Origin: Pseudomonadota bacterium
Lineage (GTDB): Bacteria; Pseudomonadota; Alphaproteobacteria; 16-39-46
NCBI GenBank assembly: GCA_018242545.1
Contig: JAFEBT010000001.1
Location: forward strand, 23,180 to 87,179
Reading direction: 5' to 3'
DNA length: 64,000 nt
Numbering within the stretch: the stretch's first letter is position 1; each line of letters begins with the position of its first letter. Shown piece by piece: positions 23,988 to 25,691 of the stretch. The notes under the pieces were generated by a model. The model was not told the origin of the DNA. It saw only the letters and a program-made list of their open reading frames with translations, and made no database searches. The translations under genes and the position numbers were made by a program.

Positions 23988-25691
23988 TTATCTTTTTTCA
24001 AGCTCTTCACCTCGATGACCCTTGGCTCCTTTTTCAATGAGAAAATTCCATGTTACAGGATCAAAAGACGCCTCAAAAATAATCGGATGGCAGTTAACAA
24101 AAGCATTTAAATTAGCGCCCATAGACAAAAAAAGGTCAATTAATCCCTTTTCGCCTCTAGCTACAGAGGCCCAAAGACAAGCGTCAAAATTACTTGGTTT
24201 ATATTCTTGTACTTTTAGAAGAGATTTTATATCATCTTCAGAAGAAGAGGTACGTATAGCCGTATATACAGCTTCAGATTTTGAAAGATGTTTTATTTTT
24301 GCGCCATTGTTGAGGAGGAGAGTAATAGCTCCTGTTGGGAAATAACCCGTAATGGCGCTATCAAGAAAGCTGTCTTCCTCATCCCAAGGATTGTTTACTT
24401 CTACTCCTTGATGAAATAAAGTCTGAACTTCTTCAAAATCTTGCTTTTTTAGTTTTTCTAGTAGTCCACTTCTTAAATCTTTTTTTTGTCTTTCGAGCCT
24501 GGCCTGCCTTCTTGCTTCTTCAATATTTCTTTCCTTTTCTTCTCGACTTTTAGGTGATCTAAATTTTTCAAAATCTCTCGATTTCTCTTGAGTATCTTGA
24601 TCTTTCATAGAGGATAGCGTTAGCAATCCATTTTGCATAAAGCAAAATTCTTTAAAATAACTTTCGTCAACCAATAAATTATTCGCATGAAGCCATTGAA
24701 GAAATGGGGAATTTACAAAGAACCTTGTCCTATGAGCTGAATAAGATTCTCTTAAAGCAGAGGCCTTAAAATCCGAATCTAAAATCCTAAATTTTACAAC
24801 ATACCCAGCATGCACCTGAAAATACCGCGCGTCACATTCTTCCAGTCCCACGTATTCTAATGGTAAAACTGAAGGACTCTCTTTTCCCTTCTGAATTAAA
24901 AATGCATCGAGATAAGGAGGTAAAGCATTGGCGCTTCTCGGATTAAGTATAAAAGGCACTTTAAGATGTATCAGAACATCAAGAAGATGCCCGCGAGAAA
25001 CTAAAGGAACATCATATCTCGAATCCAGTTTTTCTTCCTCATAGAGGTAATGAAACCAATCCATATTAAGAAAACCACCTGTGCGTGTTTTATTAAAGGC
25101 AGCCATAAATGTTCCTAAAGGATTGAAGAGATGCCGCATGGTCCACCGTGAGATTGTCAAATCAAATTCAACGGAGCCTAAGCCTCTTTTTCTGAATTCC
25201 TCTTCGAAGTCTTCAATCATAAAAAGACCAAATTTATAGATTTTACAATTCCAGTCTCTTTTTACTGCTTTATCTTTATAAGGCTCTCCTCGTATCCCAA
25301 CAATATGGATGGTCATACCCTCAAGAGTTGCACCCATTTCTTTAAAGTCACTTGCCCACGCATCGCAAGATTCAAAATTTCCAGCTCCAATATCTAAAAG
25401 CCATACATTTCTTCGACCTTCTTCATAGGCTTCTCTCACAATTATTTTCGAAAGTTCTTTTTGTTTTATATCAGCCAAATCATAATAAGACTCTCCATTA
25501 AACACCCCCCAAGTCGATTGAGAAGAAGCAGTCTGCACAAAAAATTCATAAGTAGAGCGCGAAATGCGGCCAATAAAAGACGGTGGTTGCCTTCCCACAA
25601 TATATCTTTCTTGATCCTCCAGAGCAAAAAGAGAGATAGGGAACATTGTAAAAATAAAAGCAAAAACATTTATATAAAAACGTAATTTCAT
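23988..25691 (-). CDS. Secreted protein with class-I SAM-methyltransferase-like N-terminal domain and C-terminal ankyrin repeats (effector candidate)
   Basis: Signal peptide MKLRFYINVFAFIFTMFPISLFALEDQ. SAM-binding motif-I-like VWLLDIGAGNFESCDAWASDF. Charged Glu/Arg/Lys-rich linker. Ankyrin-like repeats (ITLLLNNGAKIKHL, LWASVARGEKGLIDLFLSMGANLNAFVNCHP, FLIEKGAKG). Confidence 0.55.
   Translation of the reverse strand: MKLRFYINVFAFIFTMFPISLFALEDQERYIVGRQPPSFIGRISRSTYEFFVQTASSQSTWGVFNGESYYDLADIKQKELSKIIVREAYEEGRRNVWLLDIGAGNFESCDAWASDFKEMGATLEGMTIHIVGIRGEPYKDKAVKRDWNCKIYKFGLFMIEDFEEEFRKRGLGSVEFDLTISRWTMRHLFNPLGTFMAAFNKTRTGGFLNMDWFHYLYEEEKLDSRYDVPLVSRGHLLDVLIHLKVPFILNPRSANALPPYLDAFLIQKGKESPSVLPLEYVGLEECDARYFQVHAGYVVKFRILDSDFKASALRESYSAHRTRFFVNSPFLQWLHANNLLVDESYFKEFCFMQNGLLTLSSMKDQDTQEKSRDFEKFRSPKSREEKERNIEEARRQARLERQKKDLRSGLLEKLKKQDFEEVQTLFHQGVEVNNPWDEEDSFLDSAITGYFPTGAITLLLNNGAKIKHLSKSEAVYTAIRTSSSEDDIKSLLKVQEYKPSNFDACLWASVARGEKGLIDLFLSMGANLNAFVNCHPIIFEASFDPVTWNFLIEKGAKGHRGEELEKR

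Follow-up and report, generated by a model that had tools for sequence, protein, structure and literature searches.

A putative Sec-exported methyltransferase with ankyrin repeats, from an uncharacterized protein family found mainly in intracellular bacteria

The DNA analyzed here is a 64-kb stretch of contig JAFEBT010000001.1 (the window, taken at its full length), and this report deals with a methyltransferase-ankyrin gene on its minus strand (23988..25691). According to the listing of open reading frames (ORFs), the gene starts with ATG and encodes 567 amino acids followed by a stop codon (23988-23990). Along its entire sequence, the product shows 100% identity to the NCBI entry 'MAG: hypothetical protein JSS34_00240 [Proteobacteria bacterium]', which derives from a metagenome-assembled genome (MAG). 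An earlier note on this DNA had described the protein as a combination of a cleavable signal peptide, a class I methyltransferase motif, a charged coiled linker and C-terminal ankyrin repeats, and it had suggested a host-targeted effector encoded next to a VirB-type type IV secretion system (T4SS). Here, we consider the catalytic core, the family to which it belongs, the N-terminus, the ankyrin domain and the genomic surroundings before the possible function of the protein is discussed.

Alignments delimit a conserved family core at residues 30-350 (24642..25604, minus strand), which consists of an N-terminal lid, a Rossmann fold and a C-terminal beta-rich subdomain. In a 44-sequence alignment, to which all conservation values given here refer, the lid bears the conserved motifs (L)DWxxRP and WGxxNGxxxY. 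The portion predicted to bind S-adenosylmethionine (SAM) comprises strands b1-b5 (residues 93-225; 25017..25415, minus strand), and the translation places in it the glycine-rich SAM-binding loop of motif I, LLDIGAGNF (residues 98-106; 25374..25400, minus strand). Within this motif G102 is invariant, and D100, A103, G104 and F106 are conserved in at least 90% of the sequences. The window protein also retains the invariant residues G135, E160, H187 and D211 as well as E136 and D177, both of which are conserved to at least 90%. E136 is part of the segment IVGIRGE directly past strand b2 (residues 127-133) and is a candidate for the acidic residue that would bind the SAM ribose. Since the SAM-binding motifs are intact, the sequence suggests that the enzyme is probably catalytically active.

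When the window protein was used alone as query, it stayed under every Pfam gathering score (Methyltransf_31, E=0.052, 13.7 bits against a cut-off of 27), and an NCBIfam scan of the same query gave no methyltransferase match. Among the aligned family members, 25 of 44 matched Pfam Methyltransf_23 (best E=1.4e-7). A profile built from 20 core sequences yielded no match to PDB sequences even at E<=10. We next consider the structural evidence. A single-sequence AlphaFold prediction was uninformative, with a predicted local distance difference test score (pLDDT) of 39. The AlphaFold2 model calculated from the 44-sequence alignment reached a pLDDT of 84.7 (mostly above 90 in the core) and a predicted template modeling score of 0.67. 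It can be seen from this model that strands and helices succeed each other in residues 95-267 as they do in class I Rossmann methyltransferases and that a beta-rich subdomain extends from there to residue 361. A Foldseek comparison with the PDB gave 52 matches at E<=1e-3; the 50 matches listed were all SAM-dependent methyltransferases, and the best of them was MnmC2 (9e-6). These models indicate that the core adopts the seven-stranded Rossmann-like fold of class I SAM-dependent methyltransferases, and the assignment to this superfamily rests on structure rather than on a curated sequence model. Thus, the class I methyltransferase that the earlier note had read from motif I was recovered by family, profile and structural evidence, and the structure prediction it had recommended as a check did return a methyltransferase fold. 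The protein shares this fold, motif I (DxGxGxx) and the conserved acidic residues past b2 and b3 with the generic enzymes of the Pfam Methyltransf_23/11/12/25/31 clan. It differs from them in its own conserved lid (DWxxRP, WGxxNGxxxY) and in a C-terminal beta-rich subdomain of about 130 residues.

The relatives of the core were collected by an exhaustive phmmer search with residues 1-370. This search yielded 477 cluster representatives at E<=1e-3, 325 of which were retained at E<=1e-10. A word-indexed homolog search had given a single relative, and a full-length alignment was swamped by ankyrin proteins; the core-only alignment worked. The annotations offered for the family were just 'hypothetical protein', 'SAM-dependent methyltransferase' and 'ankyrin repeat protein'. 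Pfam has no model dedicated to the core of about 320 amino acids, and the PDB contains no sequence relative; as judged from these searches, the core is a distinct uncharacterized family.

When one genome per prokaryotic species was scanned, we found 38 family loci. They were located in Chlamydiota (Rhabdochlamydia, Simkaniaceae, Parachlamydiales and further MAGs), in Legionella maceachernii, Fluoribacter gormanii and Candidatus Berkiella, in a Dependentiae MAG and in several alphaproteobacterial MAGs. The organisms named in the protein database entries show the same distribution (Chlamydiota, Chlamydiales bacterium STE3, F. gormanii, Dependentiae). Loci labeled as Verrucomicrobiae interleave with chlamydial sequences in a neighbor-joining tree, and a few weak or partial matches carry the labels Acidobacteria or Myxococcales; all of these labels are unconfirmed. 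A scan of IMG/VR viral contigs revealed no family relative. Several chlamydial loci carry tandem copies: L031 holds six in 9.4 kb (positions 1209-8568), L009 and L015 hold three each, and arrays were also seen in L012, L017 and L011. The MAG from which the window derives encodes a second, ankyrin-less paralog with 39% identity (P0005, JSS34_07815); no second copy or fragment of the family was found in the window itself. F-box-like N-termini had been suspected from the sequences of some chlamydial members, and Pfam gave no support for them.

The named members come almost only from intracellular lineages, and this distribution, together with the tandem arrays, points to a host-interaction family rather than to a housekeeping enzyme. 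It is what would be expected of such a family if it were exchanged among intracellular bacteria of protists. We did not find orthologs that look like housekeeping periplasmic enzymes of free-living bacteria, a finding the earlier note had named as one that would speak against its proposal. Its general idea of a host-directed factor is thus in line with the origin of the named members from lineages living inside eukaryotic cells; the delivery by the T4SS that it had proposed fared worse, as detailed below.

The N-terminus carries a predicted Sec-type signal peptide (residues 1-23, MKLRFYINVFAFIFTMFPISLFA; 25623..25691, minus strand), which was recognized from the translation and from its conservation. 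The segment is arranged as MKLR / FYINVFAFIFTMF / PISLFA, is followed by LEDQE and lacks a lipobox cysteine. It combines a basic n-region (K2, R4), a hydrophobic core of 13 residues, a proline at position -6 and L-F-A at positions -3 to -1, and this pattern suggests that signal peptidase I likely cleaves after Ala23. A gene for signal peptidase I is present in the window. The same layout was observed in all alphaproteobacterial homologs examined: all seven of these members (the window protein, P0005, P0151, L001, L032, L033 and L037) have Sec-like N-termini, so that the signal peptide proposed earlier held up. The N-terminus of the Dependentiae member (L021) is hydrophobic as well. Signal peptides were found in none of 20 chlamydial or Verrucomicrobiae-labeled proteins and in none of three proteins from Legionellales. 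A Fisher test of signal peptide against lineage gave p=5e-7, a value that overstates independence since a single clade contains five of the seven proteins from alphaproteobacteria. In the neighbor-joining tree, which was calculated without support values, the signal-bearing members occupy at least three places, and three of them fall outside the main clade.

We also considered a translational start at Met16 or past the hydrophobic segment and rejected it for this gene. The triplet at codon 24 is CTG, Met16 is not preceded by a Shine-Dalgarno-like sequence, and the relatives keep the hydrophobic extension. The reading frames of the signal-bearing members open 4-20 codons upstream of the first methionine (four codons in the window gene), and this opening close to Met1 together with CTG at codon 24 makes the long form the likely product. 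In five of eight signal-bearing members (P0005, P0151, P0004, L032 and L033), the residue following the predicted cleavage site is a methionine, as in SLFG/MEE and SCFA/MEP; the window gene has leucine (CTG) at this position. This pattern suggests either that the signal peptide was acquired later, in front of the former start codon, or that translation begins at two sites.

A charged helical linker (residues 362-415; 24447..24608, minus strand) connects the core with the C-terminal domain. AlphaFold2 predicts helices at residues 362-375 and 380-415, and the pLDDT is low (47-67) around residues 370-390. The linker had been described as charged and coiled; the strong charge was evident, and 'coiled' is correct only in the sense of a long helix. 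An NCBIfam U2AF match within the linker (E=0.015) was taken as compositional.

The C-terminal domain (residues 416-556; 24024..24446, minus strand) is a degenerate ankyrin domain of about 4-5 repeats, as concluded from profile searches against the PDB and from the AlphaFold2 model. For the query alone, the Pfam Ank_4 match was sub-threshold (E=0.2, 12.5 against 22.7 bits), and the match to DARPins (6e-8) is inflated by the triplicated modules of these designed ankyrins. The three closest relatives (P0003, P0004 and P0006) carry the same degenerate domain with 32-43% identity. When these sequences and the query were combined into a four-sequence profile, it matched 202 ankyrin chains in the PDB; the natural ankyrins among them included Ankyrin-1/2 (4rlv, 2.5e-12), RNase L (2.7e-7) and EHMT1 (2.6e-5), and the profile also matched ANK-N5C (1e-9). 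In the AlphaFold2 model five helix pairs were predicted for residues 419-553 with a pLDDT of about 90. Profile and model thus agree on the C-terminal ankyrin repeats that had been claimed, and the repeats are detectable by profile methods. The domain is followed by a C-terminal tail (residues 553-567, KGAKGHRGEELEKR; 23988-24035, minus strand), which is conserved in the three closest relatives with the consensus GAKG-x-x-GE-x-L-x-K(R) and could serve as repeat cap or as some sorting signal.

Strong Pfam ankyrin matches (up to 4.5e-35) were present in 20 of the 44 aligned family members. When 120 family proteins among the matches listed were inspected, about half carried ankyrin repeats and the other half did not. 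A member from 'Proteobacteria bacterium SZAS-38' (L006, P0023) has the reversed order, with ankyrin repeats at residues 144-259 ahead of the methyltransferase core; this protein lacks a signal peptide, and close to its N-terminus there is a basic KKRK stretch. Since the repeats are N-terminal in this member, the ankyrin fusion appears to be recurrent and has probably arisen more than once.

The gene is flanked by spacers of 995 bp (guanine-cytosine (GC) content 0.281) and 906 bp (GC 0.260), neither of which contains an ORF of at least 70 amino acids. The earlier note had pointed out these AT-rich non-coding flanks of about 1 kb, which are indeed present; they are not particular to this gene, since 11 gaps of at least 400 bp (GC 0.23-0.35) occur in the window, about 78% of which is coding. 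Long AT-rich flanks are a genome-wide trait and do not mark an island, and the low coding density together with the AT-rich spacers may reflect gene decay in a host-associated genome. The GC content of the gene (0.367) compares with 0.344 for the window. Around the gene, a search for signs of mobile elements returned just short AT-rich chance repeats, and promoter and terminator scans of its flanks gave nothing above the shuffled expectation. An AT-rich hairpin lacking a T-run lies 26 nt beyond the stop codon (23928-23962).

Upstream of the gene, a single HU-family gene (26598-26864, plus strand) intervenes before virB11 (26925-27848, minus strand), so that the protein is encoded, as had been stated, one gene away from a VirB-type operon. 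This operon (26925-37589, minus strand) comprises virB4, a gene for an unassigned protein of 258 amino acids, virB6, virB8, virB9, virB10, a gene for an unassigned protein of 718 amino acids and virB11. The 718-amino-acid protein (27878-30034, minus strand), located between virB10 and virB11, has a hydrophobic N-terminus and no Pfam or NCBIfam match and would be an unusual extra component. Two small hydrophobic ORFs upstream of virB4 (37242-37589 and 36943-37239) occupy, by position only, the places of virB2 and virB3.

Taken together, these data are compatible with a Sec-exported SAM-dependent methyltransferase with ankyrin repeats that choose its substrate, a protein and most likely one of the host, and we assign this reading a probability of roughly 0.5. 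In such a scenario the precursor would pass through the inner membrane by means of its signal peptide and would probably be cut after Ala23 by signal peptidase I. In the mature protein, a long charged helix would join 4-5 degenerate ankyrin repeats to a class I SAM-dependent methyltransferase domain, which would belong to a family not described so far and would probably be active. By analogy with RomA/LegAS4 the repeats would most likely select or hold a protein substrate. A host (protist) protein would be the most likely substrate because the named family members come almost only from bacteria living inside eukaryotic cells. A second export step over the outer membrane would then be needed, which might be type II-like, TolC-dependent, vesicle-based or, less likely, a two-step T4SS route. 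The data show the gene, its fold and motifs, the ankyrin domain, the size and spread of the family and the distribution of signal peptides over the lineages; activity, protein substrate and host location of the window protein are what we infer.

The architecture has a precedent. RomA/LegAS4 of Legionella pneumophila methylates histone H3K14 by means of a SET domain and has six ankyrin repeats at its C-terminus; these repeats are required to bind the substrate, provide around half of the contacts to the histone peptide and are indispensable for activity (PMC10653858). Both proteins have an N-terminal methyltransferase domain followed by C-terminal ankyrin repeats, and RomA likewise belongs to an intracellular bacterium of protists. 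However, the catalytic folds are different (SET in RomA, class I Rossmann in the window protein), and Pfam and PDB searches gave no SET domain match, so that the two proteins are analogous and not homologous. In addition, RomA is a Dot/Icm substrate for which the abstract reports no signal peptide, whereas the window protein has a Sec-type N-terminus. In this respect it resembles ankyrin proteins of the amoeba parasite Babela massiliensis (Dependentiae): of the 126 ankyrin proteins of this species, 79 have signal peptides, and a type II system is presumed to export them into the amoeba (PMC4378268). These proteins differ from ours in that they are defined by ankyrin repeats only and that their secretion is predicted; the Dependentiae member of our family with its hydrophobic N-terminus (L021) comes from a MAG of the same group.

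Several points weigh against the proposed reading. No outer-membrane export route was identified for the window protein, and no family member has a known activity, SAM binding, secretion or host. The signal peptide was judged by inspection and conservation and not by a trained predictor. Some loci bear unconfirmed labels of free-living groups (Verrucomicrobiae, Acidobacteria, Myxococcales). The source organism is represented by a MAG, and its intracellular lifestyle, which the low GC content, the T4SS and the family content suggest, is no more than plausible. Moreover, the structural scores are flat and mix small-molecule, RNA and protein methyltransferases, so that they settle the fold but do not point to one substrate class; given such generic matches, the substrate may be a small molecule or a nucleic acid. 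Finally, RARP-1 of Rickettsia, a Sec-signal ankyrin protein of an intracellular alphaproteobacterium, was formerly assumed to be secreted into the host and was then shown to stay in the periplasm (bioRxiv 10.1101/2022.02.23.481736). For RARP-1 no enzymatic domain has been described, and we take the comparison as a caution only and not as a family assignment.

The degrees of confidence that we attach to the rival explanations overlap and are not intended to sum to 1, since one of them concerns the substrate and the others the location of the protein. The example of RARP-1 illustrates the possibility that the window protein resides in the periplasm or the envelope, or is anchored there by an uncleaved N-terminal helix (the N-terminus may be a signal anchor), and that it methylates or binds bacterial envelope proteins while its repeats recruit bacterial partners, as is reported for RARP-1. 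The Sec-type N-terminus and the missing outer-membrane route fit this explanation. Nevertheless, all 23 chlamydial and Legionellales members examined lack a signal peptide, which suggests that in most lineages the domain works in a cytosol-like compartment. SAM is normally absent from the periplasm; for a bacterium in the host cytosol, host SAM could reach this compartment, and rickettsiae are known to import SAM. The tandem expansion of paralogs and the ankyrin fusion are also more typical of host-interaction families than of envelope housekeeping, and on balance we regard an envelope-resident enzyme as less likely than a host-directed one, although it is the most serious of the rivals. Somewhat less probable still is an enzyme that does not modify proteins at all, acting on a small molecule, a lipid or a nucleic acid or being a dead scaffold, with ankyrin repeats that serve localization only. 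Its nearest structures do include many small-molecule and tRNA/rRNA methyltransferases (MnmC2, MycE, UbiG, HNMT, CmoA, BpumL), about half of the family has no ankyrin repeats, and inspection by eye revealed no (D/N)PP(Y/F) motif typical of amino-group methyltransferases. However, the family-wide conservation of the SAM-binding positions argues against a dead enzyme, and the fact that the domain was joined more than once to a module for protein binding speaks for a macromolecule as target.

The third alternative is that the protein is a substrate of the adjacent VirB-type T4SS and is injected into the host by a two-step periplasmic route or from a non-exported pool. The gene shares its strand with virB11, which is located 1.2 kb upstream and is separated from it by the HU gene alone, and its closest relatives share the C-terminal tail GAKG-x-x-GE-x-L-x-K(R). 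There is also a precedent in Brucella, where the VirB substrate BspC bears a Sec signal peptide (PMC3738490). BspC is, however, the sole translocated Bsp protein with such a signal (PMC3738490), and signal peptides of the Sec type are not typical of VirB substrates, among which they are an exception. When VirB4, VirB6, VirB8, VirB9, VirB10 and VirB11 of the window were compared by tblastn with the 38 homolog loci including 5 kb flanks, no match was obtained at E<=1e-5; none of these loci, the alphaproteobacterial ones included, has a VirB gene within 5 kb. The genes adjoining virB11 in the window revealed neither virD4 nor any domain of a T4SS coupling protein. The oppositely oriented HU gene and the spacer of 906 bp that separate the gene from the operon make co-transcription with the virB genes unlikely. 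Considering the Sec signal, the absence of VirB genes near the 38 loci and the lack of virD4 after virB11, the proximity to the T4SS is best treated as coincidental. The functional link drawn in the earlier note is thus not supported, and injection by this system appears improbable to us.

A broader interpretation goes beyond the export of a protein-modifying enzyme by a single organism, and we put it forward tentatively, as possible but doubtful. The core of about 320 residues might represent a pan-symbiont effector family, a host-directed methyltransferase domain that was passed among unrelated protist-dwelling bacteria and whose export signal was re-fitted in each lineage. Under this interpretation the Sec signal would be used in alphaproteobacteria and Dependentiae and would be absent from lineages that inject via type III or Dot/Icm systems, and the methionine that follows the predicted cleavage site in five of eight members would be what is left of an ancestral start codon. 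That ankyrin repeats are fused to the domain so often would point to a conserved protein of eukaryotes as the target, and hence to host protein methylation of a new kind.

The combination of methyltransferase and ankyrin repeats in an intracellular bacterium was known before; the lineage-dependent signal peptide is new, and the catalytic family is an uncharacterized one. The bacterial effectors known to methylate host proteins are mainly SET-domain enzymes, RomA among them. If our interpretation is true, four distant intracellular groups would share another methyltransferase family, which is unrelated to these enzymes and was joined to ankyrin repeats several times, and with it a widespread, unstudied modification of protist (possibly animal) host proteins. 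In this case the split between members with and without Sec signal would illustrate neatly how, in nature, one effector domain was fitted to different secretion routes. The culturable Legionellaceae members (L. maceachernii, F. gormanii) allow direct testing.

The remaining content of the window is that of an ordinary chromosome, with genes for FabI, signal peptidase I, Era, RlmN and AmpG. A two-piece (permuted) alpha-type transfer-messenger RNA (tmRNA) was found at 53881-54271 on the minus strand (RF01849, 236 bits); ARAGORN called it at 53841-54244 with the tag peptide ADNDNAFGVEAMNDNAPAVAAAA. The tmRNA type and the ordinary chromosomal genes identify the window as chromosomal DNA of a low-GC (0.344) alphaproteobacterium. 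Two LuxR(GerE)-NB-ARC-TPR proteins of 1143 and 1157 amino acids are encoded at 19561-22992 (minus strand) and 46844-50317 (plus strand), and one of these genes is the immediate downstream neighbor of the methyltransferase-ankyrin gene. Together with an NB-ARC-only ORF of 307 amino acids (18449-19372, minus strand), they form an expanded family of STAND-type regulators within 64 kb. In a further protein of 448 amino acids (45488-46834, plus strand), a DCC1-like thiol-disulfide oxidoreductase domain occurs together with an HTTM-like region (E=7.5e-6, slightly under the Pfam cut-off).

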